A DNA stretch of 64,000 nucleotides from Prorocentrum cordatum (lineage: Eukaryota), in assembly GCA_963575745.1 (NCBI GenBank), contig CAUYUJ010000215.1:1-64000 (forward strand). Reading direction: 5' to 3'. This document shows, piece by piece, positions 4,529-45,290 of this stretch (position 1 is its first letter; every line of letters begins with the position of its first letter). Position numbers and translations under genes: made by a program. Below the pieces are notes generated by a model that was given only the letters and a program-made list of their open reading frames with translations, searched no databases and was not told where the DNA came from.

Positions 4529-4558
4529 CTGATGGTAATGGTATGGGTGATGATGATA

Positions 4559-4614
<56 letters not shown>

Positions 4615-4890
4615 AATGATGATGATGATGATCATGATGATGATGATTATGGTGGTGGTGCACAGGATGTATATGGTGCCAATTCTGATGATGACGACGA
4701 CGATGATGATGACGATGGCGATGACGATGACGATGGTGATGATGATAACGATGGTACTGATGATGCCGATGATGATGTTGAGGATGAGGATGAGGAGGAG
4801 GAATTAGAACTTGATGATGATGATGGTGATGATGATGACAATGACGATGCCGATGACGACGATGACGATGATGATGACGATGACGATGAC

Positions 4891-4935
<45 letters not shown>

Positions 4936-5279
4936 AACGATGCTGCTGATGATGATGATGATGCTGGTGATGATGATGTTGATATTGATGTTGATGTTGA
5001 TGATGATGATGATGGTGATGATGATGAGATGGTGATGGCGACGACGACGACGATGCCGCCGCCGCCGACGCCGCCGCCGACGACGATGACATGATGACGA
5101 CGATGATGATGACGATGATTGTTATGATGGTAGTGGTGATAATGATGATACGTGTGGTGGGAATGCTTATGGCTGGTGATGGTGACGGTGGTGGCGGTGG
5201 TGAGATGATGCTGATTCTGATCATGATGATGGTGGTGGTGATAATGATGATGGTGTATATGATGTCTACGGTGCCGATA

Positions 5280-5329
<50 letters not shown>

Positions 5330-5538
5330 CACGATGCTGACACTGATGATGGAGATGCGGATGATGATGACGATGGCGATGACGATGATGATGATGCTGA
5401 TAATGATGACGATGATTACGATGATGGTGGTGATGAGGATGACGATGGTACTAATGCTGACGATGATGATGTCGAGGATGAGGATGAGGATGAGGATGAC
5501 GATGATGACGATGACGATATTGATGGTGATGGTGATGG

Positions 5539-5583
<45 letters not shown>

Positions 5584-5860
5584 CGATGACGCTGACGCTG
5601 ATGATGATGGCGATGATGATGATGATGCTGATGCTGCTGATGTTGATGATGGTGATGATGATGACGATTCTGATGATGATGCTGCTGATGATGGTGATGA
5701 TGATGAGGCGGAGGGTGATGCTGATGATGATGAGGATGAGCATGATGATGTTGATGATGATGATGATGATGATGATGCTGATGCTGATGCTGATGCTGAT
5801 GCTGATGCTGATGCTGCTGATGATGATGGTGACGATGATGATAATGAGGAGGAGGATAAT
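4529..5860. repeat. Degenerate (GAT/GAC)n microsatellite
   Basis: Direct reading. Confidence 0.95.
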
Positions 5861-7316
5861 GAGCTTTGAGAATGAGGTGGAGGAGGAGCTTTAGGATGCA
5901 GCAGGAGCTTTGAGGACTTGAATGAGGAGAGGGATCGAGGAGGAGGGCGAGGAGGGTGGAGGCGCCCACCCCCTTCTCCCTCTTGCGTCCAGAGAGAGGT
6001 GGCCGGAAGGGGAGGAGGAGAGGAGGAGGGGAGTCGGGGATGGAAGGGGGGAGTACAGTCAGATCCGGTTAGTATGTCGACCCTGCAATGTCGAGTTGTT
6101 CTCGTGCCCTGCCTGTCACGCTTCACGGCCTTCTTGATCTCCCGAGCATATGGTATATGGGCTGCCCGCAGAAGATGCCTGGGGCCCTCTCGGGCGTCCT
6201 TTTTGCAACCGGTCCCAACTGTGGGGCGAGATTTGGAGGTTAGGAGGAGGGCGGAGGAGGAGGAGGAGGAGGAGGCGGAGGAGGAGGGAGGAGGAGGAGG
6301 TGGAGGAGGAAGAGGAGGAGGAGAAGGGAGGAGAGAGGAGTGAGTGAGCGAGTGAGAGCAATCGCGATGCGATCCCGTGCCTCCGGGCCGTCCCTTGAGC
6401 TCCATACCGCAGGCGACGAATAAGAAGAGAGCGGAGACGACGCGACGCAATTGCATTGAGCTTGCCCCATTCTCCCACACTGTACGCCCGAAGCTGCTGA
6501 CGGGAGCGCGGAAGAGGGAGGTTTGCGGAGCGTTGACGACGCGACGCGTAAGCATGTCTCTATCCATGTCCAACCTGAAGTACGCCAATACTGCAGGAAG
6601 CATCAGGAAGCAGGGTTTTGGTAGCCTGGGACGGACACCACCGCTGAAGCCCAGGAAGAAAACACAAACGTCATGTATCCGTGTGCAGTGAACTTGGAAC
6701 CCAGCATACTCCAACCCATGTTCGAGAAGCCCTACCGGGAGCACACTGTGTTCACCCTATTGCCACGCCTTGGCAGGAACGAGCACCGACGACCACGCCC
6801 CGGCAGGGGAACAGTCCCGCATGCACCTGTTACAGAGCCACCATATACTCCCGCCCCAACAAAGCACAGCTCATGTTCTTCCACTGCTGTGCGTAGAAGA
6901 CTATTAGGTTGAATGCTGAGGACTGGACCAACAGTATACGAGCGTCGCGGCACTCTGCGCGACTGAAGACAGTCTGTTCGATTGCACAACTTGCCTTCCT
7001 TCGTCGTCGGGAGGAGCAGCACGAAACATGTCTAGATACTCGCGCGGCGGACCCGAAGCCCCCCAAGCACCGCGAGGAGGCGAGGGCGGCCTGGGCGAGG
7101 CGAGCCAGGAACCTGAAGAAAATGGCAATGGGGCGCTGCCTGGGGCGATGCTTGAGCCAACATGGCTTGAGCTGAAATGGCTTCGGGAGGGAGGGGCGGG
7201 GGCACGGTCGACCAAGAGGGCATACCGTTTTGGGGGCCTGGACGACTATCCTCCATCCTCTCTTCCCTCAGCAGGGCGTTGCCCGCGCCGAGTGCTGAAT
7301 GGATTTCGAGGGGCAC

Positions 7317-11000: not shown

Positions 11001-11561
11001 GATGAGGAGGACGATGACGATGGTGGTGATGATGATGATGATGATGATGATGAGGATGCTGATGATGATGATGATCCAGTGGATGTACGTGAAAGAGGAG
11101 GCGTGGGATGATGATGATGATGATGATGCTGATGATGATGATGATGATGATGATGATGGTGTGGTAATGAGGATGATGCTGATGATGATGCTTGTGCTTG
11201 TGCTGATGCTGATGCTGGTGCTGATGCTGCTGATGCTGATGATGACGACGACTCTGATGACGATGACGATGATGATGCTGATCACGATGACGATGACGAT
11301 GACGATGACGACAATGATGATGATGCGTCTGATGATGATGCTGATTCTGATGATGATGAGGATGATGATAATGATGATGATACTGCTGATGCTGCTGATG
11401 ATGATTATTATTTCGATGATGACGATTCTGGTAATGATGATGGTGAAGATGATGATGATGATTATGCTGGTGCTGATGATGATGCTGCTTACGATGACGA
11501 TGACGATGACGATGACGATGTCGATGATGATGCTGATGATGATGGTGATGATGACGATGAC

Positions 11562-11601
<40 letters not shown>

Positions 11602-11642
11602 GTGCTGATGATGATGATGACGACGATGAGGATGATGATGAC

Positions 11643-11685
<43 letters not shown>

Positions 11686-11704
11686 CTGATGATGATGATG
11701 ATGC

Positions 11705-11756
<52 letters not shown>

Positions 11757-11773
11757 GGTGTGGTGATGCTGCT

Positions 11774-11804
<31 letters not shown>

Positions 11805-11866
11805 ATGATGATGACGATGATGATGATGATGATTGTGATGATGACGATTCTGATGGTGATGATGGT
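11001..11866. repeat. Degenerate (GAT)n microsatellite
   Basis: Direct reading. Confidence 0.95.
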
Positions 11867-12964
11867 GAGCCGAGGGTAGGCCGATGGCGACGAGAGCGGC
11901 GACGAGCACGATGGTGGCGGCTGCGACTATCTTCTGCAAGGTTGCCCTCCCTAAGGATGATGATGGTGAGGAGGAGGAGGACAAGGATGCGGTGGAGGAG
12001 GAGGAGGAGGAGGAGGAGGAGGAGGAGGAGGAAGAGGAACTCATGCAACGCCCTCGGAGGGGTGCTGTCGATCCCCGGTGGTCCACATATTGCTGTCGAC
12101 TTCGAACGGGCTCCTTGTTTCGCAGTCCTCCTCATCCACATCCCGCGTGTCCTCCTCCTCCTGCTGATCCTCCCCCGCCTCACCATCATCCTCATCATCA
12201 TCACCATCGGCATCACCATCCTCATCATCGTCACCATGTCCACCCTAACGCATACTCATTGCAATGTATTGCATTGCGTATCTTACCCCTCTTCATAATT
12301 CTAGTGCTTTTGAGTAGCAATTTCGGTTGTGCCAATTTTTGTGTGTGTGCACTGCCTGTTCCTTTGTGGGCATGGCTCTGCGCTTCCCACGTCCTGAGTG
12401 CACAGTTCCGCTGTTGCAGTTCTTTACCACCCGCAAAAATGTCGTGGGCAACTCTGCGAAAAGAGTCGCATATCCACGTATACATACATAGACACATAAA
12501 ACGCATACGTAAGCGATACGCATGTTGTAGTATACGTACGTCCCTATATGCGTACGCATGTACGAATGCATGTATCCATGCGTGCACACGTCGACATTCA
12601 CACACGCGCATACTTGAATGTCGCATTGTGTCACTGGGGGCGGTTTTGCAAAAGCTGTCCGCTACCCTGCTACCCTGCTACCTCGCTGCTACCCTGCTAC
12701 CTCGCTGCGGCCTCGCTGCCGAGCAATGTAGCAGGGTAGCAGGGTAGCAGGGTAGCGGGGTGGCAGGGTGGCAGGGTGGCCGGGTAGCGGGATTGCGGGG
12801 TAGCAGGGTAGCAGGGTAGCGGGGTAGCGGGGTGGCCGGGTAGCGGGATAGCCGTGTAGCCGTGTAGCAGGGTAGCAGGGTAGCAGGGTAGCGGGATTGG
12901 GAGCAGGGTCGCACAGAGTCGCCGTGACTGGGGACAGGGCCGCCGTGTTTGGGGACCTGGATAC

Positions 12965-16640: not shown

Positions 16641-17618
16641 GGGAAGGGCGGAGGACGGAGGGAAAAGGGCGGAGGAAAACGGGAGACGGAGGACGGAGGA
16701 CAGAGGACGGAGGCGAGACGGAGGGAGGACGGAGGGCCCCGGACGTCCCCGGACGAGCCCCCGATGGGCTTGCACCCCTCCCCTCCGGGGGGGCATGCGG
16801 GTCCGAGTGCAAGCTTCTCCGCCGACTCTCTTCGATGCATTCGTGGAAGTTATCCATTGGGTCAGTACGAGTCTGGATTCACAATGCGTGAGCTCCTGCG
16901 CGGCGACGTTCGACGACGACGACCAGCACGACGACATTCGACGACGTTCGACGCCGAGTGCGACGACGCACGACGACCTACAACGACGCAGCGCGGCAGG
17001 CTGACTTCTGCCGATTTTGGCCGACTTATTGTCCGGTCCACCCGATGCTGGGGCCGCGTGCCTTGCTGCGGCGTGCCAGGTTCAAGCTTCCTCTTATGAC
17101 GTCCCGTTCCCTCCCGGCTACCCTGCTACCCCGCTACCTCGCTACCCCGCTACCCGGCTACTCGGATACCTTGTTATCCTGCTACCCTGCTACCCTCCTA
17201 CTCTGCTGCCCTGCTGCCCTGCTGCTCTGCTACCTTGTTCGGCAGCGAGGCCGTGGCATGGTAGCAGGGTAGCAGGGTAGCGGATCGATTTCGCACCACC
17301 CTGCTACCCTGCCACCCTGCTACCTTGCTACATTGCTCGGCGAGGCCGCAGCGAGGTAGGAAGGTAACAAGGTAACACAGCAAAGTAGCGAGATAGCAGA
17401 GTAGCAGGGTAGCGAATCGATTTTTGACTTCCGTGGGTGACACTCTGGAATGTCGCACTGCATAGGCGTTCGCTGGATGGCACGTGAACGCGTTACATCT
17501 GCATGCAACCATGTTTTACTTACGTATGCGTAAGCATGTATGCATGCATGCATAGATATTCACACGCGCATATTTGAACATCGCTTTACATAGGCGCGCG
17601 CTGAACATGCATCTTTGT

Positions 17619-17829
17619 ATGGGCGCTCTGGGCAGCATTTGAGCGCGGGGAGAAGTCGCGCGAGCGTCGTGGCCCCTATTGGCTATCTTCTTGCTTGTCT
17701 CTAATGCTGCGGGACGGCTATTCACGGCTGAGGCGGATCCCCACCCTGCGCGCCCGCGAGCGCGTTCTCGTCGCAGGTGAATGGGATTTGTCTCACGCGT
17801 GGCCGTCCCGCTGGCGGGATGCGTTTTTC
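17619..17829 (+). repeat. Terminal repeat A1 of element 1
   Basis: Matches 25966-26176. Confidence 0.95.
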
Positions 17830-18125
17830 GCGCGCGTTCGCTTGGCCGCTCCGCCGCCTCTTTCTCCCGTCGCAGGTTCCCCCCCCCCCCCCTCCTCCCG
17901 CGCGCGCGTCGCTTGACCGCTCCGCCGCCTCTCTCTCCCGTCGCAGGTTCCCCCCCCCCCCCCCTCCTCCCGCGCGCGCGTTCGCTTGGCCGCTCCGCCG
18001 CCTCTCTCTCCCGTCGCAGGTTCCTCCCCTCGCCCCTCCTCCCGCGCGCGCGTTCGCTTGGCCGCTCCGCCGCCTCTCTCTATCTCCCGTTGCAGGTTCC
18101 TCCCCTCCCCTCCTCCCCCACAGGT
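17830..18125 (+). repeat. ~72-bp tandem repeat x4 in the 5' leader of element 1
   Basis: TCGCTTGGCCGCTCCGCCGCCTCTCTCTCCCGTCGCAGGTTCC at 17838, 17909, 17982 and 18054. Confidence 0.9.
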
Positions 18126-18229
18126 CCGCGCGTCTACTTCGTGGAGAGCACCTACGTCCCTCGTCGGTTTTGCGGCTCGAAGGTCTGGACACACATGAGT
18201 ACGGGTCATCCTGGGCCGAATGCCGACCC

Positions 18230-18775
18230 AGTGCGCAGTATGCCTGCGGATGCCGTATGCTGGCCACTTGTCCCCTGCGCTGTGCTGCAAGTGCGCGCCG
18301 TATGCTGGTCCCTTGTGCGCAGTGTGCCTGCGGATGCCGTACGCCGGCAATCACTCCTCTGTGCAGTATGCCTGCAGTGTGTGCCGTATGCCGGCCATTG
18401 TGCGCAGTATGCCTGCGAATGCCGAATGCCGGCCCTGTACGCAGTATGCCTGCGATTGCTGCCTGTCAGCCCCTCTCCGCATTATGCCTGCGCGTGCGGC
18501 TGTATGCCTGCAAGTGGGCGCCGTATGCCGGCCATTAAGCGCAGTATGCCTGCGAGTGCCGTATGCCGGCCCCCCCCCATAGCGCAGTATGCCTGCGTGC
18601 GTTGCAGTATGCCTGCAAGTGTGTGCCGCATGCCGGCCCTTGTACGGAGTACGCCTGCGGTTGCCGTATGCCGGCCCAGTGCGCAGTATGCCTGCGGATG
18701 CTGCCTGTCTGCCCCGGTGCGCAGTATGCCTGCGGCGTGCGTTTGCCTGCCCTCTTGCGCTGGATGCCTGCGGGT
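18230..18775 (+). repeat. ~40-bp degenerate tandem repeat (~12 units) in the 5' leader of element 1
   Basis: TGCGCAGTATGCCTGCG..TGCCGTATGCCGGCC repeated. Confidence 0.85.
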
Positions 18776-18858
18776 TATGTCATGTGCAACCGCCAGCGCG
18801 CGATGAGGACGCCGAGGGGGATGCGTGCACGGCGCTTTCCGACGCGCGCGCAGCATCC

Positions 18859-20651
18859 ATGGCGCTGGCTCGCTCAGACATCGTTGAGTTGCTTGGCGAT
18901 CTGCCTGCTGGCGCATTCGGCACCGACAAAAATGCCATCAGGGCGCGCGCGCGCGTCTCCGTGCGTCTACCGCGGGCATGAGCCCACTCGCAGCGGCGCG
19001 CAAGGCCGATTGGGTCCTCTTCGTCGCAGCGGCCAACGCGGCGGAGGGGGGCGCATCGCCAGCTCCCGAGCTGGTGCTGTGCACCACGGTCGCGCGCCTG
19101 ATGGCCGAAGCGATCGGGGCGGTCCGCCCGATTGATTACTCGGATGCGGCCATGCGCGATATGTTGATTGCGGCCCTGAAGCCAGGCGCGAAGCCGTTTG
19201 CGGGCGATTCTTCCGCGGAGTGGCGCGATTTCGCGATTAAGCCGTGCCACATCAATATGGCGCTGCGGACACAGTCGCGAGCGATGGAAGCCTTCGGGCG
19301 GAAGGCCCCCGCCCCGTTGGTGCGCGAGGACGCGGGCCGCCGCGCGGCGTGCCGCCAGGAGGGTCAGCAATCGGCCCCGGCGGAGGCGGCCGCCAAGCCC
19401 GCGGAGGAGACGACGCGGATTGCGGCGGCAATGGAAGAATACGTGAAGGCCAGCAAGGAATTGCTCGAAGAAAAGCGGGAGAAGCCGCTGGCGTTTGCCG
19501 TGGAGGCGCGCCGCGTTTTCGCATGCGCGGGCGGCATTGTCCGGGGATACGCGCCTCGGCAGGACCGTGTGCGCGAGGTCTGGCTCGGCAAGTTCCCCCG
19601 TGAGGGATCGCCGACCGAGGAGTCGATGCGCAAATTCGCGGCCGCGGGCCGGACGGCCCAGTCCCATGGCCGCTCATACATTGGGAGCGCCGAGGGCGAG
19701 AGCCTGCAGGCTCCCTGCTCGGCGGCACGTGCAATGACAAGCTTCCGTTTCGCCGATTGCTCCGCGCGCAGGACCACTGCAAGCCCCAATGGGCGCGAAT
19801 GCCGAAGCTGGACTCGGTGCCAGCGGGGGCGGGCTCGTGGCGCGATCGCGCGTCGGCCGTCACCGCGGCGAACCGCGCGGGTGCGGCCCTGGACCGAATG
19901 GATTTTCTCGGTTATGCGCACTTCCAGGTCGCGCGCGACGCAGCGCAGCGCGCGCGCCCACGCGCGCCCCGTGGCGCGAGGCCCACGTAATGGAGTGGGG
20001 GCTTCGCTGCATCCTGTCCAAAGTGTTTGATCCCGTCGTGCTATTGGGATACATGTACCAGCTCGCGCGCGTGAGCGAGGAGCACGGGGGCGTCAAGGCG
20101 CGTCCGCGGAGCGGCGGGCCCGATGCCCAGGGAGCCGCGCGCGGGAGCCCGCGCCGCGTCCAGGTTTCCTACACGTACGATTTGCTTCTCCGCCAGAAAG
20201 TGGCGAAAGACCTGGAACACGGCGACGAGGATGCGACGGCCTCGTTCACTGCGTTGTCGTGGGACATTCTGCGCGCCGCCAAGGAGCGCAGCGCTTTTGA
20301 GTGGCCGCCGCCCTGGCATCGTGCATCGCGCTGCGCGCTGTAGGAGAGAGTCCAGCAGTCGGACCGCCAGGCGGCGTTCGCCAAGGGCGGGGGCAAGAAA
20401 GGCGGCAACGACCGGCGCGACCAGGCGCGAGCCCGCGCGTGCGCGCCCCGCGAGCGCGAGCACGCGTCGCGGCGCGCGAGGCGGCGAAGCCACGGACCCC
20501 GGTGAGCCCTGTCCTCCGCCAGCGCTCGCGCAGCCCCCGCCGCGATACCTTCAGCAAGAAGGGGAGCGGAAAGGCCGGCAAGGGAGGGGCTCCCAAGGAC
20601 GCGGGGAGCTCGTGGCACAAGCCTGAGCGAAAGGAGTCCTGGCGGTGGTGA
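18859..20651 (+). CDS. Gag-like protein of element 1, 8 exons
   Basis: Introns 18943-19004, 19506-19562, 19710-19771, 19928-19980, 20098-20163, 20284-20343 and 20425-20480 (all phase 0, GC/GT/GA-AG). Splicing gives one open frame MALARSDIVELL...YQLARVSEEHGGVK|VSYTYDLLLRQKVAKDLE...RSRSPRR...WRW*. Gag identity is inferred from position and the basic tail. Confidence 0.78.
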
Positions 20652-20902
20652 AGCCAGGGCGCCGGCGCTGTGCATGCTAATTATTCGCCCGCCCGAGGCG
20701 CGCTCCGCGCGCGCGCGCGCGCGCCCCCCCGCGGGGGCGCCGCGCCAGCCAGTGATGCAGACGACGGGGCCTCCCCATTGCACCCTGCCGACAGCGGTGA
20801 GGGCGCAGTGTGGCGCGGGCCGTCGCCCGAGGGGCAGGAGGCGCCGCCAGTGCGCCGCGCGCGAGACCGCCCCGCCCGCGGCGAGCGCAGCGCAGGACGC
20901 GG

Positions 20903-23617
20903 ATGTTGATTCCGACGACGGCGCCGAAGGCGGGGGCGGCGACCTTTGCCCCCAGCAAATCCACGATGCCGGCTGCGCATTTGAAGAGGCCCTTGCCCGC
21001 CACTCTACGGGGGCGGAGCCGCGAAGCGCGCGCGCAGATCAAAGCCGCCGTGGATGCGTTGCTCGACGACGAAGACAAGAGGGCGGGCATGAGCCCTCTT
21101 TGCCACGCCGCCTGGGCGGCACACTTGCCGCGAGTCCGCGAGATAGCGCCGCTTGCGGGACCTGAGCGCGATGCGGCGGTGGCGGCGAGCCAGACGAGCG
21201 ACGCACTCTTGCAAGAGAGGCGCGAGGCGGCGTTGCAATTTTGGCGAGAGCGCAAACGTGTGACGGCTTCAGAATGGAAGGCGCCGCCCGGCACGCCGCT
21301 ACCGCGAAGCACCGGCGGAGAGCGCGGTCGGGCGAGGCACGCTATGCGAAGTTACCATGGCATGTGCGCTCCGTCCTTGGGCCTGACAAGAACTTGTTGC
21401 TTTTGGCCGAAATGATGCAAGCTGCAGGGGTGACCAGCGACGCAGCGCGCGCGCGCGACAGCGGGGCGCGGCTCCGTGCTTGAGGCGTCCGACGAGAATT
21501 TGACGCGTGACTTGGAGCGGGGCTTCCCGCTAGTGGGGGTCCTGCCGCGCTCGGGCATGAACGCGCCCGTGACCCCCAAGGGAGCCGAATGCCCATCCGA
21601 GTTGCGCAGCCGAGCGGACACTTTGAACGCCGCCACCCTCGAGCGCGTGTCTCGGGATCTGGGGACCGACGCGGAAGTCACCCAGATTTTGCATGATAAA
21701 GCATACGAAGAGGCGCGCGCCGCGCAAGCCAGCGGGGACAGTCGCCCATGCTGCGACGTCCGCGAGCGTGCAGGTGGCCGCGGGCCAGGCAGCGTGGGTC
21801 CGGTTGTCCGACCTGCCACGCGGGGCGGTGTTAAACCCGCGATTCCCTGTAGACGAGGGATGGCGCTGGAAGTTGGAAGAATGGATACGCAAGGAATGGC
21901 GCATTCGCCGCGGCATGCACCGTCCCCTCCCCTGGGCGCCGCGCCGGGAGCCAACGCGTCCAGGTACGCGCGATCGACGATTTCACTGCCACGGGCGTTA
22001 ATGACTGCGCCGCCGCAGCCGAGAGGTGCAGGCGGGCCCTTGCCCCCCCGCCCCGCCCCTCGCGCGCGCTGTCCGCTCTCCCGTGTCGCCGCGACCGCGC
22101 GTGGGTGGATTCTCTCGATGCTCTGGTCGAGCTGGCGCGGATCGCGGCCGCGGCCGGCACGCCGGTGCTGAGCAAAGAAGATTTCATCGGTGCTTACAAA
22201 ACGTTGCCCGTGCGAGGCGCCGACCTCCCGTTGGCCCATTCGGTATGGGCCAAGGGAGCCCGCGAGGGCTACTGTCTGCAACTCTTGAGCTGCCCCTTCG
22301 GCGCCGTGGGCAGCGGATACGCTTGGGACCGCGTTGGGGCGGCGCTCCAGGCGCGAGGCGCGCGCGCCGCGGCGGCACGGCGAGCGCGCGGCAGGCCATC
22401 CTTGCCAAGCTGTTCTCGCTCGTTCCGGGCCGACGCGGACAGGGGGCCCGGCACGGGCGGCCCCCGCGATGCCGCAGAGGTCCTGAGGGCGGTCGTCGAA
22501 GACCTTTTGGGCTGGCGCCTGGACGCCGGCAAGCGCGTTGTTGCCGAGCCGAGGGCCACTGTGCTCGGCGTCGACGCGGAAGTGCGCGGATCGGGCGATG
22601 AGCTCTCGATTAGTATTCGCGATCGGTGGCGACAAGCGCCACAAATGGATCCAAGAGATCGAGTGGGTGCTGGAGGTAGGGAGAATGTCGCCGGCGGCGG
22701 CATCAAAACTTGCCGGCAGACTCGGATGGGGCTCCTCTGCGGTGTTCGGCAGAGGCACGCCCAAGCTCCCGCGCGCGAGCGACGCGCGCGCGCGAGAGCG
22801 ACGGCAGGTGCCCGGGTATACCTCGCCCCGCTGTTCTGGCACGCGCAGCAGCGGGGATGGAGGTTGAAGTCGCGGCTCCGCGGGGCATTGGAATGGTGGC
22901 TGCGCTTCCTCCGGAGCGCGCCGGAACGAGCGGTGCCCCTGCGGGTGACCCCGGAGCGGCCACGCTACCTCGTCTATTCCGCGGCAGGCGACATACGCGC
23001 GCGCCTGTTTGGAACGGCGCCCGCATTGCCCGGCCCGCCCCGCCTCCGCAGGCTCGCGTGGGTCATCATTGGGCCCAGCGGTAAGCGCTATGCAGCGGCT
23101 GATGTGCCTTCGTCGATCAAGCGGTGGACGAAGCACCGCAAGACGCAGGCGGGGGCGCCCCGGCCACGCGTAGCCTGGCGGACAGCCCGCCGTGTTGCGA
23201 AAGGTCGCGGCATGGGAACTCGTCGCGGCCGTTTGCGCCTTGCATCATTTGCTCGCGACGCTGCGCGATGCGGAAATCGTGTTGTTTGTCGATTCGAAGG
23301 CGCGGCCGGGCGCGGGTCGCCGAGCTGCCCGTGCGATGCTCCGCTGACCGCGCCAGGCCGCGCTCGGGGTGCTCCTACGCGGGACCTCGCGCCAGGCAGA
23401 TTATAACGCGCTCGTGGCAGATATTTGGTTCGCAGCAGCGACCGCGCGGTGCCTCCTGAGCGCGTGGTATGTGCCATCCGCGCTCAACGTGGCAGACGCC
23501 CCTACGCGGCCCGCCACGAAGGCGGCCGCGATTGCGGCCATGCACCGCGAGGGCTTCACCCGAGTGGCGTGGCCATGGCCCCGCGCGGCGCCCTGGCATT
23601 CGCGCGGGCATGCATAG
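20903..23617 (+). pseudogene. RT + RNase H (pol) of element 1, spliced and disabled
   Basis: Introns 21281-21336, 21430-21484, 21713-21773, 21894-21963, 22351-22394, 22755-22807, 23149-23203 and 23300-23356. Spliced motifs: DLERGFPLVG, K|VRAIDDFTATGVN, KEDFIGAYKTLP, CPFGAVGS, SKLAGRLGW, Q|VAAWELVA, LFVDSK|AALG, YVPSALNVADAPTR. YxDD is missing at ~22433 and there is a frameshift near 22585. Start position approximate. Confidence 0.85.
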
Positions 23618-23710
23618 CAAGTAGCACAGGGCAATTTGTAGGGGGCGCAAAGGCTTGCGCGGCGAGCGCGTGACGACCAGGCCCGCCGCGAGAGGGGGCC
23701 CGCGGGCGCC

Positions 23711-25770
23711 ATGCTTGCGTGCTTGTCACACGCGTCGCGGTGGACGCCCGAAAATGATTCGCATCCGGTAGGCGCGGAAGCTCTGCAGTGTCTGACATCC
23801 ATGCTCGCAGCCGAAGGAGCGGCGTATCCCCCCGACCTGTCCGGATTCACGGCGAAGGAGGCGAGGGAAGTGTTCCCGTGCCTCCGGGAGTGGTCAGAGT
23901 GCTTCACCGTGACGCTTATTACTCACGCGCGTAAGCTGACCCACGAAAAGGCAAAGCGGCCCCGGGAGGACGATGCAGCGGTATCGCTCTCCCAGGTCGA
24001 GCGCGCGCGCAACTCCGCCCCATCCGGCGGAGCAAGCAAGGCCGGCCGCCGCCCGCTGACCCGTGGGCGCGAAGGCGGCGGAAACGTTACTCGAGAAAGC
24101 GGCCAAGTGCCCGGCACCGGCACCGGGCTTGCGCGCGAAACGCCGGCCCGGCGGGGGTTTGACGCCTCAAGAAGCCCTCGCGTTGCTCTCAGCGGCAAGG
24201 CAGGCACGGCAGGCACCACCGCGCGGCGCCACCGTCCTCGTGCGCCGCGCGAGGCGCGGAGGTACCAGCGCCGCCGATGCTGGCAGAGGCAATCCGCCAG
24301 CTGACGAAACTCCAGGCTCCGCCCGCGATATTCATATGCGAAGGCGGCATTCCGCGGGAGGTGCGCGCGAGGCAGGACATCGGCGTGCGGCGGGTGCCAG
24401 GAACACCTCGTCGGCGCGCCGAGGAATTGCGGGTGTCAGGAGCAGGACTGGAGTGCATGCGCCGCATCCAGATGGCCGCGCTGTGGCGAGAATTCCACGC
24501 GTGGAAGCTCTCGGCATACCCGTATGCCTCGGCGGTGGAGTTGTACGGCCAGGCGTGCGATGCGGCAGGCGTCCCGCCCTGGCCGCCGTGCGCCATCGCG
24601 CGGGACATGATGGTGGCGCTCTGTCGCCGCCCGGGGACCCTGTCGAACTATTTGCAGGGCATTCGCTCAGTCCTGCATCTGCTCCGCGCAGACACAGGGT
24701 CTTTGGCGGACGCGCGGACCCTGGTATTCGGTGCCCGAAAGGTACGGCCGCCGCGCGCGTCGGCCGCGAGCCCATGATATCGGCGGCAGGCGGAACCGCC
24801 TGGTGCGCAAAGATTTCGTGCGCGCGCCACGGCCGAAAACGTGCGCGCGATGTCGGATTGGCTGCGCGAGGCGCGGCCGCGCGCTCTTCGAACTAAGCGG
24901 CCTGCCGTGCGTGCCGGCCCGCGGGCCTGGCGTTTGGCAGATCGGACGCGGCGATATGGCCGACGCTTTCGTCATATGCTGGCAGTTCTGCTTGCGCTTC
25001 GGCTCCGAAGTAGTGGGGCTGAATGCGCCTGGGCATAGTGCCGTCTCGCTCCACGTAGACGAAGGAAAGCACCAGGTGCAGGTGCAATTCCGCCAGCGGA
25101 AGGGGAGAGTGGCTCCCGACCCGGCGGGCCGAGCGCGCGCGCGCGGCGGGGCGCGCCCCGGGCTCCCCGCATCGCGAGGTCTGGAGGGTATGCGTATGCC
25201 AGCTCCAGGGCAAACGATTGTGTGCGGTCTGCATCATTCGGCATTCGCTCCGGCCCGGCGAGCAGCTCCTGCCGGGCGTCTCTTACGTGGACGGGCTGGC
25301 TTGCGTCAAGCTCGCCGCTGCCCACCTCGGGCTCCATAGGGCATTGGAGTGGGGGACGCATTGCTTCAGGCGCGGCCGGGCCGACCAGGCATGGGCTCCC
25401 CTTGCCGTCCCCTGCCTACCCAGGGCCCGCGCGCAGTTCGTGTCTCTCGCACACAGGCACTCCGCACCGGGGGGCCAGCAGCGCTGTTCTTCGAAGGGGG
25501 TTGGAGATCTGTGGCCGCGTTCGGGCACTCCATTCCGACAGGGGGCACGGCCGCGCTGCCTGGGTCGCGAGGGCGCGGCGCTTGGCGGCGCACAGGTACC
25601 CGGCCGCAAAGACGCGGGCCATGGTGCTGGCGGCAGAAGCCGAGATCGCGCACTCCGATTCCGACGAGGCGCCGCCTTGCAGGCATCGGGGTCGGGGCTC
25701 CGCGGCGGCGCGTGGCGCGCAGGACGCGCCGATCGCCGCGGAAGCGGTGCAGGGGCCGCCCAGGCCGTGA
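23711..25770 (+). CDS. Tyrosine recombinase of element 1, at least 9 exons
   Basis: Introns 23996-24074, 24204-24261, 24316-24375, 24742-24789, 24871-24940, 25124-25178, 25389-25456 and 25525-25595. The spliced product has TLSNYLQGIRS, FCLRFGSE (R), RQRK (K), CVC...CAVC, GTHCFRRG (HxxR) and GGWRSVAAFG|Y (W, Y). Confidence 0.85.
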
Positions 25771-25845
25771 GTCAAGCAGACCAGGCATCTGCGGTCTGCT
25801 TAGAGCGCGCTTGGGCGTCGTTCCGCCGAGCATGCATCGGGAGGC

Positions 25846-26396
25846 CGGCGAGGTTGCTCGGCTCCACGACGCCGATTCGCGCTCACCCCACCGCCTGGCC
25901 TGGGCCTGCGCCAGTCGACGGTTGTGCCCTGCGTTAGCGCGGGCCCAGCCTCGACGCGACTTCTCATGGGCGCTCTGGGCAGCATTTGAGCGCGGGGAGA
26001 AGTCGCTCGAGCGTCGTGGCCCCTATTGGCTATCTTCTCGCTTGTCTCTAATGCTGCGGGACGGCTATTCACGGCTGAGGCGGATCCCCACCCTGCGCGC
26101 CCGCGAGCGCGTTCTCGTCGCAGGTGAATGGGATTTGTCTCACGCGTGGCCGTCCCGCTGGCGGGATGCGTTTTTCCCCACCCGCCCGACCCTGCTGCGC
26201 GAGCGCACTGGCGTCGCAGTGGCTGCTAGTTGTGTCGAGGCTGGGCTGACCCAGCGCCAGGCTTGGGGGAGGCGTCGGCGAGGTTGCTCGGCTCCGCGAC
26301 GCCGACTCGCGCTCACCCCACCGCCTGGCCTGGGCCTGCGCCAGTCGACGGTTGTGCCCTGCGTTAGCGCGGGCCCAGCCTCGACGCGACTTCTCA
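25846..26396 (+). repeat. B1-A2-(spacer)-B2 right end of element 1
   Basis: B1 25846-25966, A2 25966-26176, B2 26276-26396. Confidence 0.95.
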
Positions 26397-27085: not shown

Positions 27086-27688
27086 TTGTTTTTCGACCCT
27101 GACCCCACAGATCTGCGTGAGGGGTGCCGCCGAATGTTAGAAATGTGGCAAATCCCGTGTGTTTTTGGACCCTGACCCTATTGATCTGCGTGAGGGATGC
27201 GCCGAATGTTAGAAATGTGGCAAATCCCATGTGTTTTTGGACCCTGACCCTGCTGATTAGCGTGAGGGGTGCCGCCGAATTGTGGAAATGTGGCAAATCC
27301 TTTGTGTGTTGGGACCCTGACCCTGCCGATCTGAGGGAGGAGTGCCCCCGAATTTCAGAAATGTGGCAAATCCCTTGTGTTTTGGGACCCTGACCCCGCC
27401 GATCTGCGTGAGGGGTGCCAGCGAACTTGTGAAATGTAGCGTGGCCTTGCCGATCTGCGTGAGGGGTGCCACCGAATGTCAGAAATGTTGCAGATGCTTT
27501 GTGCTTTTTGACCCTGACCCCGCCGATCTGCGTGAGGGGTGCTAGCAAATTTCAGAAATGTGGCAAATCCTTTGTGTTTTTTGACCCTGACCCCGCCGAT
27601 CTGCGTGAGGGGTGCCACCGAATTTCAGACATGTGGCAAATCCCATGTGTTTTTGGACCCTGACCCCGCCGATCTGCGTGAGGGGTGT
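27086..27688 (+). repeat. ~72-bp minisatellite, ~8 units
   Basis: GACCCTGACCCCGCCGATCTGCGTGAGGGGTGCC..CGAATTTCAGAAATGTGGCAAATCCC.TGTGTTTTTG repeated. Confidence 0.92.
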
Positions 27689-35614: not shown

Positions 35615-35689
35615 CCCTACGAGAAGGCCGCCCGATCAGGCCTCCTGCCTGGTCGGGCTCCCGGCGAGGGGACTCTCGTTCCCTCGCCC

Positions 35690-38600
35690 ATGCGGGCGGC
35701 TGCCGCGTCCTCGGACATGAAGGCTGCCCACAGTTTTGGACTGCCAGCCGCTGACGGTCGACAGCGCGACCTGCTCCCGCTGCCTGATGTGTTTCAGGGG
35801 CCATCCAGTTTTTCGGCGTCGACACGACCGAGTCTGTCACGACGCTCACGCCAGCGCCTCCATGCGCATCAGCACGAGTTGAAGTGGGCGAGCGACATGG
35901 TGGAGTCGCTCAACGAGATGAGTGCTGGGCCGCAGCACCGCGGCGCGCCGGGGGCGCAGGCCACCGAGGGCCAGCAGATGGTGCTCGACCGCCTTCTCTC
36001 GTGTGCTCAGGAGGTGGGTCGCCCCCCTCCTGGGCTTTCAGGCCAGGAAGCCTTGCGAGAGCTTCTGGCCCGCCGGGGCTACGACGGCGAGCCCGCGACC
36101 CTGGCCAACCTTGATGTTGACTGTCTGGCACTTCCTGAGCGAGGTCACCGAGCGGTACCTCTTTTGGAACTGGATGAGCCAGCTGGTGTGGAAGTCAGAA
36201 GGATCCTACAGGAGAAGCTCCTGCCAAAAGAGGAGGCGGAGCAGCGTAAGTTGAGTTCGGGAGTGAAGAAGGTTTTCACGGATTCTCGCCTTCGTAATCG
36301 CCGTGAATACTGCAAGCTGGTGAAGCGGCTTGAGGCGTGCGGTCTTATCGAGTACAGGACGCACCGCGAGGAGGATGTCGGTGTGTTCGCGGTCCACAAA
36401 AAGGATGGCAGACAACGTATGATCATTGATGCCCGATGGGCCAACTCTCACTTTGCTGACCCACCAGACGTCAAGCTGGCCACGGGCCAAAGCTTCGCCA
36501 TGCTCGAGGTCGACGCAGGCGAGCCCGTGTGGCTTGGCGGAGTGGACATCGTGAACTGTTTTTACACGCTGGAGCTCCCGGCCGAGTTCCGCGGGTACTT
36601 TGCCCTTCCTCGCCTTCGCGCCCGCGATGTTGGTGGAGACGGTGATGGAGTCGTATTTCCGTGCCTGAAGGTGATCCCGATGGGCTGGAATCAGGCGCTG
36701 ATGGCCTGTCAGGTCATCCACGAAGCCATGGTGGACAAGATCGAAGGGATCTCGGCCGCCAACAGGATGTCCGACGGGGCCGAGGTGCCAGCCATGCAGC
36801 CGAAGGTCCACACGGAGTACGTGGACAACTTCGTGGCGTACGCTGGCGAGCAAGGCCCTGTGGCAGAGGCTGCTCGGCGGGTGGACGCCCTGTTCCGCTC
36901 GAAGGGGCTCCCTACCCACGGGGTCGAGGTGGGCCAGGGCGGCGCTTCGCTCGGCTGGGAATTCGCGACCGACACCAGCCTGGTGGGGCCGAGTCGGCTT
37001 CGCCTCTGGCGGCTGCGGCTGGGCATCCAGGAGGTGCTGCGCCGCCCGAGGGTGTCGGGCCGTGTGATCGAGATCATCATAGGCCATCTCACCTTCGTGG
37101 GCTTGCTGCGCCGTGAGTTCCTGGCAGTTTTCGGGGCCGTCTATGCCTTCGTCAGCCAGAATCGTGAGCGGGAGGTTGCACTCTGGCCTGCCGTCAGGAG
37201 GGAGTTGAAATGGGCGTCCTCCTTACTCCCTCTGCTGCGTCGTGATCTCGGGGCAGCGTGGTCGGACACGGTCTGTGTCAGCGACGCGTCGCCGTGGGGT
37301 CGCGGCGTCGTAGAGGGGGAACGGGCGGTGCCGCTCATTGCAGCTGCCGGGCGGGTGAGCGAGCGCTGGCGCTTCTCGAAGAGTGAGGAGCTCGGCGCCC
37401 GGGCTCGACTGCACTGCGAGTTGCAGCAAAGCAGGCTGCGATCGCAGGAGAAGGACAACCAATGGCCAGACAGCTGTACCCCTTCCTCAGACTTCAGAGA
37501 AGTCAGCCCTGAACTCATGAAAGGCGAATGGAGAGTTGTGTCTGCTGGCCGCTGGTGGAAGTCCGAACACATGCCCCTGCTCGAGGCTAGAGCGGTCCTC
37601 TGGGCCCTGAAGCACCAGCTCCGACGTCGGAGATCTTTTGGCAAAAAGCTACTATTCATCGTCGACGCTATGAGTATCGCTCTGATGTTTTCAAAGGGGA
37701 GATCGTCGTCATCACCTATGAATCGCATCTGCAGACAATGGAGCGCACTATGTCTCGGAGCCAATGTTATGCCAAGCGTACGATGGATCATGAGCGAGCT
37801 AAACCCAGCAGATGAGCCATCACGAATATATACACCACCATCAACGTCATCAGCACTACATCGTTATTTCCTCGGTTCCGTACCACGTCTTGGATCCGAT
37901 TCAGGCAGCCCGAGGTCGGGGCACCGGGGCGACTCAGAGCGCGATGCTGCGCCGCCCTGCCCTGGCGGCGGCAGCGTCGCCCGCGGCGAGCAGCGGGCAG
38001 CTCAGCCGAGCGGCGGCCGCTGCGCCCTCAGCGACTCGGAGGCCGACAGCAGCGGCGGAGGCGAAGGCCAAGCGGGCCGCCCAGAGGAGGGCGCGCCAGC
38101 CCGAGGCGAAGGCCTACCAGGCCTCGGAGGGCCGCACCTTCCTGGAGGCCCGATCGGTGTCGAAGCCCGTGGAGGCGCTGTACAACACGCTGATGGACGA
38201 GTTCGAGCGCTGGGCGGCGGCCGAGCAGCTGGAGCTGCGGACGCTGGCGCAGCGCGACGCGGCGCTGGCGAAGTACTCGACCTTCCTCTTCTTCGAGGGC
38301 CATTCGGCGAGCGACTTCAGCAAGACGAGGGCGGCAGCCGCCTTCCGATGGCTCGACGTGTCGAAGTCGGGCGTGGAGTTGCAGCGGGCGCGGCGAGCCC
38401 AGATCGGGTTCTGCAAGGTAGCGCCCGAGCGGTCGAGGCTACCCATCCCGCTGCTGATGGTGGCCGCGATCGCCAACGAGATGGTGTGCATGGGGGTCCC
38501 CTGGTTCATGCCGATCGCCGTGATGCTCCAGTTCGTGCTCTACCTCCGCCCGTGCGACGTGCTGTCGCTCTGCCGGGAGGAGCTGGTCCCGCCTCTCCCC

Positions 38601-39853
38601 CAGAGCGTGGGAGGGCTGGGCAGGTGGAGCGTGCTGCTCCATCGCCAAGAGATGGGACAGCCGAGCAAGACTGGCGTGTTCGACGAGGCGATGGTTCTCG
38701 ACAACACCGAGTACGACGACCTGGACCAGGTGTGGGCCTACCTCCTCAGCCGCTCCAAGGGGATGCTGTTCCCGATGACATACGTGGAGTGCGCGAACGG
38801 CTTCGCCAAGGCGGTGGAGGCCTTGGGGTGCGGCCCGCTGGGCGTGGCTCATCTGTGCCAGCTGCGCCACGGCGGGGTGAGCCACGAGGTGGCGAGTGGA
38901 CGGCGGCCGATCGCCGACGCTCAAAAAAGGGGAAGGTGGCTCAGCAGTGCCAGCATGAGGCGCTACGAGAAGGGAGGCCGCGTGACCGAGATGCTGCACC
39001 GCCTGTCGTCCGAGCAGCTGCTGCGCGCCCGCGCGTGCCGAGAACGGATTGGTGCGATCCTCTCCGGCTGCTCAGCGCCTCTGCCAGGCGGTCACGACGA
39101 GGCGTTGCGCTCGAGCTCTTCTCGGGCAGCGGCCACTTCTCGCAAGCGTGGCGCCAGTCGTCTTTCTTGAAAGGGATACCCATCTTCGAATGGGACATCA
39201 AGCATGGCGACCGTTTCGATTTGCTGAAGCCGAGCAATCAAAAGCTTATCCGTGGATGGCTCATGGCAGGCATGGTGCGGGCAGTTTGGATCGGTCTTCT
39301 TTGTGCAAGCTGGTCTTCCGCCCGCAGGTCGGACAACAGCGGGCCGCCCGCCTTGAGGAATGCTGAACACGTGATGGGCCTGCCCGGTCTCTCGCCCGCA
39401 GATCAAAGAAAAGTCAATGAAGGTAATGCAATGATGAGGTTCTGTCACTCCATCTTTTTGTTGTGCAAACGGTTGCGCATCCCAGTAGTGCTTGAGAACC
39501 CCCACTCCTCGCGCCTCTGGGTTTCTCCTCCCTTCCTCCACATAAGACAGTGGCCAGAGGCCCGGGAATTCGTCACCGATTTCTGTCAATGGGGAAAGCC
39601 ATGGAGAAAGCGAACCCGTTTTGTTTCGCTTTTTGTGGACCTGAGCGATGCCGAGAGACGGTGCCGCTCGTGTAAAGGAATCTGTACTCGTACTGGTAAG
39701 CCCCATATGATTTTATGCGGTAGGCAGGACAACAAGTTTCTGACGGCTATCGCCGAACCTTACCCCAGCAAGATGTGTGCTAAGCTTTGTCAATGTTTCG
39801 CTAATGCCATTGCCAACAAAAGAGCCCTCGCTTTGTATGATTTCGGCCTGTAG
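35690..39853 (+). CDS. Pol polyprotein: reverse transcriptase - RNase H - linker - C5 DNA methyltransferase-like domain
   Basis: RT: KKDGRQRMIIDAR, VDIVNCFY, IPMGW, EYVDN. RNase H: VSDASPWG, LLEARA, FIVDAM, SELNPADEPSR. C-terminal ELFSGSG, GLLC, ENP and RKRT. The true start may be the second ATG. Confidence 0.92.
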   Translation: MRAAAASSDMKAAHSFGLPAADGRQRDLLPLPDVFQGPSSFSASTRPSLSRRSRQRLHAHQHELKWASDMVESLNEMSAGPQHRGAPGAQATEGQQMVLDRLLSCAQEVGRPPPGLSGQEALRELLARRGYDGEPATLANLDVDCLALPERGHRAVPLLELDEPAGVEVRRILQEKLLPKEEAEQRKLSSGVKKVFTDSRLRNRREYCKLVKRLEACGLIEYRTHREEDVGVFAVHKKDGRQRMIIDARWANSHFADPPDVKLATGQSFAMLEVDAGEPVWLGGVDIVNCFYTLELPAEFRGYFALPRLRARDVGGDGDGVVFPCLKVIPMGWNQALMACQVIHEAMVDKIEGISAANRMSDGAEVPAMQPKVHTEYVDNFVAYAGEQGPVAEAARRVDALFRSKGLPTHGVEVGQGGASLGWEFATDTSLVGPSRLRLWRLRLGIQEVLRRPRVSGRVIEIIIGHLTFVGLLRREFLAVFGAVYAFVSQNREREVALWPAVRRELKWASSLLPLLRRDLGAAWSDTVCVSDASPWGRGVVEGERAVPLIAAAGRVSERWRFSKSEELGARARLHCELQQSRLRSQEKDNQWPDSCTPSSDFREVSPELMKGEWRVVSAGRWWKSEHMPLLEARAVLWALKHQLRRRRSFGKKLLFIVDAMSIALMFSKGRSSSSPMNRICRQWSALCLGANVMPSVRWIMSELNPADEPSRIYTPPSTSSALHRYFLGSVPRLGSDSGSPRSGHRGDSERDAAPPCPGGGSVARGEQRAAQPSGGRCALSDSEADSSGGGEGQAGRPEEGAPARGEGLPGLGGPHLPGGPIGVEARGGAVQHADGRVRALGGGRAAGAADAGAARRGAGEVLDLPLLRGPFGERLQQDEGGSRLPMARRVEVGRGVAAGAASPDRVLQGSARAVEATHPAADGGRDRQRDGVHGGPLVHADRRDAPVRALPPPVRRAVALPGGAGPASPPERGRAGQVERAAPSPRDGTAEQDWRVRRGDGSRQHRVRRPGPGVGLPPQPLQGDAVPDDIRGVRERLRQGGGGLGVRPAGRGSSVPAAPRRGEPRGGEWTAADRRRSKKGKVAQQCQHEALREGRPRDRDAAPPVVRAAAARPRVPRTDWCDPLRLLSASARRSRRGVALELFSGSGHFSQAWRQSSFLKGIPIFEWDIKHGDRFDLLKPSNQKLIRGWLMAGMVRAVWIGLLCASWSSARRSDNSGPPALRNAEHVMGLPGLSPADQRKVNEGNAMMRFCHSIFLLCKRLRIPVVLENPHSSRLWVSPPFLHIRQWPEAREFVTDFCQWGKPWRKRTRFVSLFVDLSDAERRCRSCKGICTRTGKPHMILCGRQDNKFLTAIAEPYPSKMCAKLCQCFANAIANKRALALYDFGL
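37812..39170 (+). CDS. Tyrosine recombinase nested in the +1 frame of pol
   Basis: YLRPCD (R), SKTG (K), QLRHGG (xxRH variant of HxxR), RGRW (W), RRYEK (Y). Start codon uncertain. Confidence 0.88.
   Translation: MSHHEYIHHHQRHQHYIVISSVPYHVLDPIQAARGRGTGATQSAMLRRPALAAAASPAASSGQLSRAAAAAPSATRRPTAAAEAKAKRAAQRRARQPEAKAYQASEGRTFLEARSVSKPVEALYNTLMDEFERWAAAEQLELRTLAQRDAALAKYSTFLFFEGHSASDFSKTRAAAAFRWLDVSKSGVELQRARRAQIGFCKVAPERSRLPIPLLMVAAIANEMVCMGVPWFMPIAVMLQFVLYLRPCDVLSLCREELVPPLPQSVGGLGRWSVLLHRQEMGQPSKTGVFDEAMVLDNTEYDDLDQVWAYLLSRSKGMLFPMTYVECANGFAKAVEALGCGPLGVAHLCQLRHGGVSHEVASGRRPIADAQKRGRWLSSASMRRYEKGGRVTEMLHRLSSEQLLRARACRERIGAILSGCSAPLPGGHDEALRSSSSRAAATSRKRGASRLS
39101..39853 (+). other. C5 cytosine methyltransferase-like domain within pol
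   Basis: Motif I VALELFSGSG, acidic motif II FEWDI, motif IV GLLC (Cys codon 39302-39304), motif VI LENP, motif VIII WRKRT. Confidence 0.78.
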
Positions 39854-43867: not shown

Positions 43868-43902
43868 TTACTACCACTACTATCACTACTACCACCACCA
43901 CG

Positions 43903-43938
<36 letters not shown>

Positions 43939-43981
43939 GCTACTGCTACTGCTACGACTACTACTACTACTACTACTTCTT

Positions 43982-44012
<31 letters not shown>

Positions 44013-44054
44013 GACTACCACTACTCCTACTACTACTACTACTACCACTACTAT

Positions 44055-44098
<44 letters not shown>

Positions 44099-44100
44099 AG

Positions 44101-44132
<32 letters not shown>

Positions 44133-44211
44133 GACTACTACTACTACTACTATTACTACTACTACTTCTGCTACTACTACTACCACTACTACTACTACTA
44201 CTACTGCTACG

Positions 44212-44278
<67 letters not shown>

Positions 44279-44703
44279 ATATTACTACTACTACTACTAC
44301 TACTACAACTACCACTACTACTACTACTACTACTACTCGTATTACTACTAGTAGTATTAGTAGTACTACTACTACTACTAGTACTAGTACTACTACTAAC
44401 AACCACTGCTACAACCACTACTACTATTATTTCTACTACTACTACTACTACTACTACTATTACGACTACTACTACTACTGCTACTACTACTACTACTAAT
44501 GCTACTACTAGTACTAGTACTAGTACTATTTTGATTTCTACGGCTACAACTGGTACAACAACAACTACTATTATTACGACTACTACTACTACTACTACTG
44601 CTACTACTAGTACTGTCACTACTACGAGTCGTAATACTACTCCTCCTTCTCCTACTACTAGTACGATTAGTACGACGAGGACGACTACTGCTACCACTAC
44701 TAT

Positions 44704-44736
<33 letters not shown>

Positions 44737-45290
44737 AACTATTCCTACTACTACTAGTATTACTACTATCACTGCTACCCCTACCACTACTACTACTACT
44801 CTTACTACTACTACTATTACAACTACTAGTACTAGTACTAGTACTAGCACTCTTTCTACTACTCCTGCTACTATTACTGCTACTACTAGTGTTACTACTC
44901 GTGTTACTATGACTCGTGTTACTACTGGTACTGTTACTACTACTACTACTACTACTACCACTACCAGTACTACGTCTACTACTACGACTACTACCACTAC
45001 GATTGCTTCCACAACTACTACAACTACTCCTACTGCTGCTGCTGCCGCTGCTGCTACTATTACCACTACTACCACGACCACCAGTATCATACTTACTACT
45101 ACCACTACTACCACTACTGCTACTACTAATAGTATTACTCCTACTAGTATTACTACTACTACTACTACTGCTACTACTACTACTACTACTACTATTACGA
45201 CTACTACTACTACTACCACTACTACTACTACTACTACTACTAAAGCATTACTACTACTACTACTACTACTAGCACTACTAGCACTACTAG

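Follow-up and report, generated by a model that had tools for sequence, protein, structure and literature searches.

A decayed retroelement copy, probably of the DIRS order, with about 24 probable introns in a 64-kb window of Prorocentrum cordatum DNA

The window analysed here comprises the first 64,000 nt of contig CAUYUJ010000215.1 (assembly GCA_963575745.1, listed under Prorocentrum cordatum) and contains a retroelement at positions 17619–26396, on the plus strand like all of its features below. The element carries split direct repeats in the order A1...B1-A2-B2, and the original prediction that these repeats are complete was borne out. A1 (17619–17829), the left part of the split repeat, and A2 (25966–26176) are both 211 nt long and 99% identical, and B1 (25846–25966, 121 nt), which adjoins A2 directly, is 98% identical to B2 at 26276–26396. 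The B pair could be widened by blastn to 25839–25966 and 26267–26396 (130 nt, 96.9% identity), so that B2 forms the right end of the element at 26267–26396, separated from A2 by a 90-nt spacer (26177–26266). No second copy of the element was found within the window by blastn, and no target-site duplication is visible in the single copy examined, as its two outer flanks differ. Three open reading frames (ORFs) lie between the repeats in the order gag, reverse transcriptase (RT)/RNase H and a recombinase-like ORF, a layout like that of Ngaro and PAT-like elements. The element has a G+C content of 68–71% and sits in a repeat-rich neighbourhood with long trinucleotide arrays.

The second ORF, pol, encodes the RT and an RNase H-like part and extends over 20756–23617, where the start is provisional and represents the first in-frame ATG of a form corrected for insertions and deletions (indels), as described below. 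When 26 unspliced plus-strand ORF pieces were compared with Pfam, no relevant family was found. A 517-aa open frame over the RT region was searched against 1.84 billion representative proteins and gave 125 relatives at E ≤ 1e-3, 45 at 1e-10 and 6 at 1e-30. Complete and continuous relatives of pol are represented by P0004, P0006 and P0007 (650–682 aa). Twelve relatives were scanned with Pfam: P0042 passed the RVT_1 model (36.6 bits, cut-off 29.6), four matched RVT_1 below threshold and seven matched nothing. One of the four, P0088, also matched RVT_3 at 20.4 bits, under the cut-off of 21.6. The C-terminal third of pol, its RNase H-like part, aligns with the relatives over its full length, and window positions 23348–23614 gave a weak match (E 0.037) to the RNase H region of a viral polymerase.

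Alignment of the continuous relatives to the window with tblastn gave exon-sized matches in shifting frames, interrupted by gaps of 44–79 nt where the homologue is unbroken. Ten such insertions are seen in pol relative to P0004, P0006 and P0007; P0100 is likewise unbroken over the segments c, d and e, P0038 over f and P0056 over i. The cuts were placed without any splice motif, by trying all donor/acceptor pairs and scoring the joined translation against homologues, five of them for pol. A canonical GT/GC/GA..AG pair ties with the best solution at 12 junctions (a, c, d, f, i, j, k, l, y2 and y5–y7) and comes near the top at b, e and y3, while the ends of y4 are undecided by homology. Canonical pairs make up 0.5–3.5% of the candidates, and the joint chance of this outcome for eight pol junctions is 9.4e-9.

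The pol segments that tie with the top solution are a (21281–21336, 56 nt, AG/GC..AG/G, with a slash at the junction), c (21713–21773, 61 nt), d (21894–21963, 70 nt), f (22351–22394, 44 nt in the window copy and 9 nt longer in other copies), i (22755–22807, 53 nt), j (22988–23051, 64 nt, tied in the corrected sequence), k (23149–23203, 55 nt) and l (23300–23356, 57 nt). All have a GC donor except d, which has GA. Segment b (21430–21484, 55 nt, GT donor) was also placed by homology and lies 4 points under the top, and segment e (22032–22103, 72 nt in the window copy, GC donor with an alternative GT donor at 22026) lies near it. The acceptor AG of e has been lost from the window copy through a 1-nt deletion after 22102.

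Once the ten segments are excised, pol reads as 678 aa from 21026 onward. Against a profile made from five intron-free relatives, which was used for pol alone, the spliced and corrected form matches as a single domain over profile positions 3–665 with 803.9 bits and 0 stops. The best unspliced frame reaches 285.8 bits in four pieces, in line with the earlier expectation that the spliced translation would score better, and the uncorrected window copy, when spliced, reaches 368.6 bits with 8 stops.

The third ORF (23711–25770) encodes 517 aa after excision of eight segments, y0–y7. Its templates were P0127 and P0132, the latter a continuous intron-free homologue of 533 aa. The spliced product aligns with residues 70–531 of P0132 in one high-scoring segment pair (HSP; 37.6% identity, 6e-80), compared with five HSPs across three frames for the unspliced window. 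Four segments, all with GC donors, tie with the best solution, namely y2 against P0127 (24344–24400, 57 nt, in frame) and, against P0132, y5 (25124–25178, 55 nt), y6 (25389–25456, 68 nt) and y7 (25525–25595, 71 nt), which stands directly 5' of the presumed catalytic Tyr codon. The motif-free placement gave p values of 0.099, 0.099 and 0.027 for y5, y6 and y7, respectively. Segment y3 (24742–24789, 48 nt, GT donor) is 2 points under the top against P0132. At y1 (24204–24261, 58 nt, GC donor) the frame changes where P0127 is continuous, and P0131 and P0132 are continuous across y4 (24871–24940, 70 nt, GC donor, AG/A acceptor); the ends of both were set by motif, and those of y4 are poorly fixed. 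The least certain segment is y0 (23996–24074, 79 nt in the window copy, GT donor), which was placed by motif and stop removal only. In public run X17 the A at 24059, part of the in-frame TGA within y0, reads G (TGG), and the y0 stretch may be readable in that relative.

The gag-like ORF (18859–20651) consists of seven exons that give 477 aa after excision of six segments. No family match was found for it, and its exons are conserved in L002, one of the metagenome loci described below. Motif and frame logic place g1 (18943–19004, 62 nt, AG/GC..AG/G; on these grounds only), g2 (19710–19771, 62 nt, GC donor), g3 (19928–19980, 53 nt, GT donor) and g6 (20425–20480, 56 nt, GC donor). Segment g4 (20098–20163, 66 nt, GC donor) keeps the frame and was placed by motif and composition; L002 shifts frame within the corresponding interval. 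Segment g5 (20284–20343, 60 nt, GA donor) was placed by motif and stop removal. The three in-frame stops that had been expected to fall inside removable segments do so: TGA at 18979–18981 in g1, TAG at 20341–20343, which is the 3' end of g5, and TGA at 24775–24777 in y3.

The total is thus 24 segments, of which gag has 6, pol 10 and the third ORF 8; the original prediction was of at least 23 introns, split as 7, 8 and 8. Excluding y0, the 23 measured segments are 44–72 nt long (median 58, sum 1,373 nt), and 17 of them have a length that is not a multiple of three. GC is the donor in 18, GT in 3 and GA in 2; AG stands upstream of the donor in 19/23, the acceptor AG is present in 22/23 (the remaining one is mutated to TG in the window copy) and G follows the acceptor in 22/23. 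These figures agree with the donors and acceptors first described. The segments have a G+C content of 79.5%, whereas the coding span outside them has 67.6%. Seventeen of the 24 (the ten in pol, y1 and y2 relative to P0127, and y3–y7 relative to P0132) are absent at that codon from a continuous homologue. All-against-all blastn of the 23 segments found only short GC runs in common, and they are therefore not copies of one introner family.

The ends of the segments match the dinoflagellate-type consensus AG/G(C, T or A)...AG/G. Such donors had been called typical of dinoflagellates, in keeping with the 25–74% of introns that are GC/GA-AG in Symbiodiniaceae according to PMC11453091. With eight indels applied and the segments removed, all three frames become open together (gag 477 aa, pol 678 aa, third ORF 517 aa), and the predicted junction motifs K/VRAIDDF (d), FVDSK/AALG (l), RGRADQ/ALR (y6) and AAFG/Y (y7) are all reproduced. 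Removal had been said to restore the frame at each junction; the three frames do open, once the eight indels are applied as well. Judged on sequence, the segments are very probably spliceosomal introns and the proteins would be translated from spliced mRNA.

The indels were identified by comparison of the element with contigs of four public runs, two of DNA and two of unrecorded kind. In run X4 the dominant form has a depth of about 113–138 that is continuous through the segments, and one X4 contig, covering 23564–25842, differs from the window at 8 sites. Relative to the dominant X4 form the window copy has 22 substitutions in about 6,600 nt (about 0.33%) and several frame-changing indels. 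It lacks 2 nt after 21025, 1 nt after 22102 and 9 nt after 22385 in pol, and further on 2 nt after 24000 and 2 nt after 25845. It also has two larger private deletions, one of 26 nt at 22421–22422, which is flanked by 12-nt direct repeats and removes the FVDD motif of the RT, and one of 13 nt at 22980–22981, which takes out the DATG motif where the RNase H-like part begins, together with a private extra base at 22609 that shifts the frame. Restoring the 26 nt brings back FVDD and a continuous frame, restoring the 13 nt brings back DATG and the top-scoring GC..AG solution at j, and restoring the base after 22102 brings back the AG acceptor of e. The window copy is accordingly non-functional. 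Each of its two largest private deletions removes one catalytic motif; this pairing may be chance or may mark a non-autonomous derivative.

Two frame breaks in pol were considered as introns and ruled out. The break near the RT active site, after 22421, is the 26-nt deletion, as FVDD is found in the X4 form and in other copies, such as the read-through ORF P0001 from this family; the break at 22609 is the private extra base. The segments are kept in the sampled DNA copies, and the joints listed for the contigs of the four runs include no precise loss of an intron. An X4 joint at 25526–25592 is a near-miss of a precise loss of y7 and was also rejected, since 67 nt are missing and 4 intron bases are left; this deletion variant has a depth of 9.8 compared with about 140.

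A metagenome scan gave 11 loci; its peptide patterns do not fit the window's own family, so that close DNA relatives fall outside the sample. RT-exon scans of genome contigs and viral contigs gave nothing. Locus L001 encodes P0006 in a single uninterrupted pol frame of 659 codons. In L002 (70% G+C) the RT is uninterrupted and the RNase H-like part contains three stop-containing GT..AG segments of 57, 54 and 57 nt, two of which lie at exactly the codons of k and l in the window. In P0011, 17 and 20 extra residues are read through at precisely the j and k positions, and there is no insertion at i. Read-through ORFs of the family have the y3, y5 and y6 positions in common and the inserted sequence is not conserved; y5, for example, is 55 nt in the window, 63 nt in P0131 and 66 nt in P0130 between conserved flanking exons, and y4 is absent from P0131. 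The number of pol introns is thus 0, 3 or 10 depending on the lineage, where the continuous relative proteins may come from either intron-free DNA or spliced transcripts. These comparisons show that lineages differ in intron content and that some positions are old, and because the number differs in this way the introns appear to have been gained or lost over time as in cellular genes.

Two further features were seen among these loci. The 57-nt segment of L002 at the k position (L002:4500–4556) has the same 7 nt on either side, which looks like a duplicated target or else a splice-site context that was duplicated. In L006, L007 and L009–L011 (about 50% G+C, from marine metagenomes) the pol matches are in shifting frames, with stop-containing gaps of roughly 60–180 nt at positions unlike those of the window.

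Tandem spliced-leader relics are a mark of recycled complementary DNAs (cDNAs) in dinoflagellates. Using a dinoflagellate spliced-leader query, we found two such relics in tandem on the minus strand at 7151–7186, the first complete and the second truncated; none of 100 shuffled controls gave two matches. The host is therefore probably a dinoflagellate, as read from the window itself, and the relics suggest that a gene retroposed from cDNA lies downstream of them on that strand. A comparison of 60 other long ORFs in the window with Pfam gave 0 families above threshold and thus no host gene for intron comparison, and an Rfam search of the window found nothing.

Within the element, a 72-nt tandem array of 3.9 copies lies just inside A1 (17829–18116), and every unit terminates like a splice or trans-splice acceptor, with a CT-rich run and CAG/G. 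Degenerate repeats of 37–105 nt occupy 18215–18754 in the interval between A1 and gag. Immediately upstream of the element are 8-nt repeats, (GCTACCCY)n, at 17098–17361, and their complement, (GTAGCAGG)n, is found 4.5 kb further upstream at 12728–12892. Very long arrays of (TGA)n, (GAT)n and (TAC)n, the longest reaching 1.8 kb, occur at 1200–1932, 4548–5862, 11001–11868, 43869–45697 and 49863–50580, and the (TAC)n array explains a dip in G+C to 37% and a strong GC skew at 44–46 kb. Satellite-like arrays with units of 73 and 102 nt are present at 27087–27687 and 53162–54193, respectively. A plus-strand frame of 1,412 codons at 35615–39850 has no Pfam match and may be another unrecognised element or a GC-rich chance frame.

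Taken together, we consider it likely that this decayed copy belongs to a multi-copy DIRS-order family that keeps its inherited introns, in a probable dinoflagellate host. The features of this order include an RT, present here through the 125 relatives and the RVT_1 match of P0042, split direct repeats, present as A1...B1-A2-B2, and the lack of a target-site duplication, which fits the flanks of the one copy.

Several observations weigh against this reading. The correction used 8 indels, and 12 are listed among 37 reported. Variant sites, compared for 40 of 182 sites, number 5 in 1,465 nt of introns and 29 in 4,977 nt of exons, so introns are not more variable than exons; it had been expected that other copies would keep the segments, as they do, with greater divergence in introns than in exons, which was not found. 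The exonic changes among the same sites comprise 14 synonymous and 15 non-synonymous ones, all 14 at third positions being silent, a balance that is only a mild sign of constraint. Seven segments, g1–g6 and y0, were placed by motif, stop removal and frame logic, without an intron-free comparator; GC-rich DNA of this kind offers numerous motif pairs at each break, and these seven are therefore graded as probable. None of the 24 runs listed for the element is on record as RNA, and two runs presumed to be RNA contained almost none of its sequence words. The dinoflagellate DIRS elements described in PMC5890265 are intronless. Finally, the recombinase assignment of the third ORF is weak. Neither the window pieces nor the read-through relatives nor intact P0132 matched any Pfam family, a search of PDB sequences with P0130 (phmmer) gave no match, and the quality of the AlphaFold model of P0132 is too low for conclusions (predicted local distance difference test score, pLDDT, 48.8). 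With this poor model the top Foldseek rows were mostly Cre recombinase (E 0.04–0.3, template modelling score, TM, 0.10–0.17), with 0 rows at E ≤ 0.001. The order R...K...HxxR...W...Y in the ORF is what we take to be that of a tyrosine recombinase.

Among known systems, Ngaro elements have the same order of gag, RT/RNase H and recombinase, split direct repeats, no methyltransferase and no target duplication. PAT-like elements usually carry a methyltransferase domain, and none was seen here. We know of no report of intron-rich Ngaro elements, and a literature search found neither these nor any other intron-rich DIRS element. The closest likeness is to SymbioDIRS of Symbiodinium, which has the same A-coding-B-A-B layout, RT and RNase H in one Pol ORF, a separate recombinase ORF, a dinoflagellate host group and, as here, an RT that diverges too far from the Pfam seed models to match them (de Mendoza et al., 2018; PMC5890265). 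By that same description SymbioDIRS differs in being intronless and in the DNA methyltransferase of some copies, whereas the element here has about 24 introns and no methyltransferase part was seen in it. Papers on Ectocarpus and Chlamydomonas transposons reported no intron-rich DIRS element in the parts available. Another tyrosine-recombinase retroelement with split direct repeats, kangaroo-1 of the green alga Volvox, has introns identified in its transcripts, according to a passage in a 2006 paper that cites Duncan 2002 (PMC1636488). The presence of introns in such an element is thus not new, although the suggestion that none has been described at this density agrees with the literature found. 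The new aspects are the density, with about 24 introns packed into some 5 kb of coding sequence, the preponderance of GC donors and the evidence that introns are passed on through transposition.

Penelope-like elements also keep introns through retrotransposition, which is termed "highly unusual" in PMC8557442. They differ in belonging to another RT clade and in having a GIY-YIG endonuclease, pseudo-long terminal repeats (pseudo-LTRs) and no recombinase, and their introns are usually one or few, often in the 5' untranslated region, compared with about 24 here. Pfam scans of the window ORF pieces and the relatives found no GIY-YIG endonuclease, and the repeats here are split direct repeats, not pseudo-LTRs. 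Cryptons are recombinase-driven and can carry introns since they move as DNA. They have no RT/RNase H, whereas the RT/RNase H frame here is conserved and opens after correction and intron removal.

The relatives that share intron positions are 45–60% identical and all sampled DNA copies retain the introns, so the transposition intermediate would carry them. The spliced mRNA would supply the three proteins and a full-length unspliced RNA would serve as the intermediate; its reverse transcript would be circularised through the B-A junction, and the recombinase would then insert the circle. Our preference for such an intermediate is slight. It is favoured because the corrected and spliced RT/RNase H frame is open with its catalytic motifs, and because the end repeats are 98–99% alike, as if rebuilt in each cycle. 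A broader version of this proposal, which we put forward as a rather doubtful possibility, is that the family and its marine metagenome relatives routinely reverse-transcribe fully unspliced pre-mRNA, with introns inherited, gained and lost much as in genes. The intron load would then be useful as a disguise, letting the mRNAs of the element pass as host messages in an organism where splicing and trans-splicing affect nearly all mRNA. The acceptor-like array behind A1 could, speculatively, act as a switch that separates leader-trans-spliced and cis-spliced mRNA from untouched template.

The main rival is spread at the DNA level, in which the recombinase excises a Crypton-like circle (A1 x A2 or B1 x B2), or copies arise by duplication, so that the introns are never exposed to loss and the RT is a relic or has another role. 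The direct repeats are possible excision sites, the retention of the segments in all sampled DNA copies and the lack of a listed precise loss joint in the four runs are as this rival would have it, and the RNA route needs an RNA that evades splicing at about 24 sites. We nevertheless regard DNA-level spread as unlikely. With five indels applied and the ten introns out, the RT/RNase H frame is fully open, matches the whole profile and contains FVDD and DATG, which argues for continuing selection on the RT. The 98–99% identity of A1/A2 and B1/B2 is expected if the repeats are rebuilt in each reverse-transcription cycle, and cut-and-paste alone gives no gain in copy number.

It is much less probable that the segments are never removed, the family being dead and the open frames an artefact of the chosen GC..AG pairs. 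Many motif pairs are indeed available per break and the window copy is truly broken by private indels, yet the motif-free cuts based on homology still land on canonical ends and all three frames (477, 678 and 517 aa) open together. The exons are, moreover, conserved in relatives of 37–66% identity while segment lengths change by non-multiples of three.

Slightly less credible again is removal or skipping by other than spliceosomal means, such as translational bypassing, or a recent insertion of introners of one family. Translational bypassing of GC-rich inserts is known from the "byps" of yeast mitochondria, and the segments here are likewise short and GC-rich with AGG(C) on both sides. The 7-nt direct repeat around the one L002 segment would also suit introners, which are active in dinoflagellates as short insertions that become introns and are flanked by short direct repeats (PMC11453091). 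Introner families consist of many similar copies, however, whereas the 23 segments share GC runs only, and positions common across deep divergence, hence old, and ends that match nuclear splice sites speak against both ideas. Least probable of all is a domesticated multi-copy host gene cluster that derives from a retroelement and gained introns as host genes do: the intron density resembles that of host genes, and exon-rich dinoflagellate genes have short exons (PMC5890265), but the complete terminal split repeats (98–99% identity), the high depth in a DNA run, the repeat-rich location and the divergence of about 0.33% from the dominant form together point to recent mobility.

By the textbook account, retroelements and retrogenes are intronless because they are copied through RNA. 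A retroelement family that spreads with about 24 introns, some at codons common to 45–60%-identical relatives, would break this expectation. It would offer a system for asking how the template RNA evades the spliceosome, whether recombinase-bearing retroelements also move as DNA, and at what rates introns are gained and lost in a mobile "gene". Annotators should be aware that such elements in the genomes of dinoflagellates will be overlooked by Pfam scans and by gene models that lack introns.

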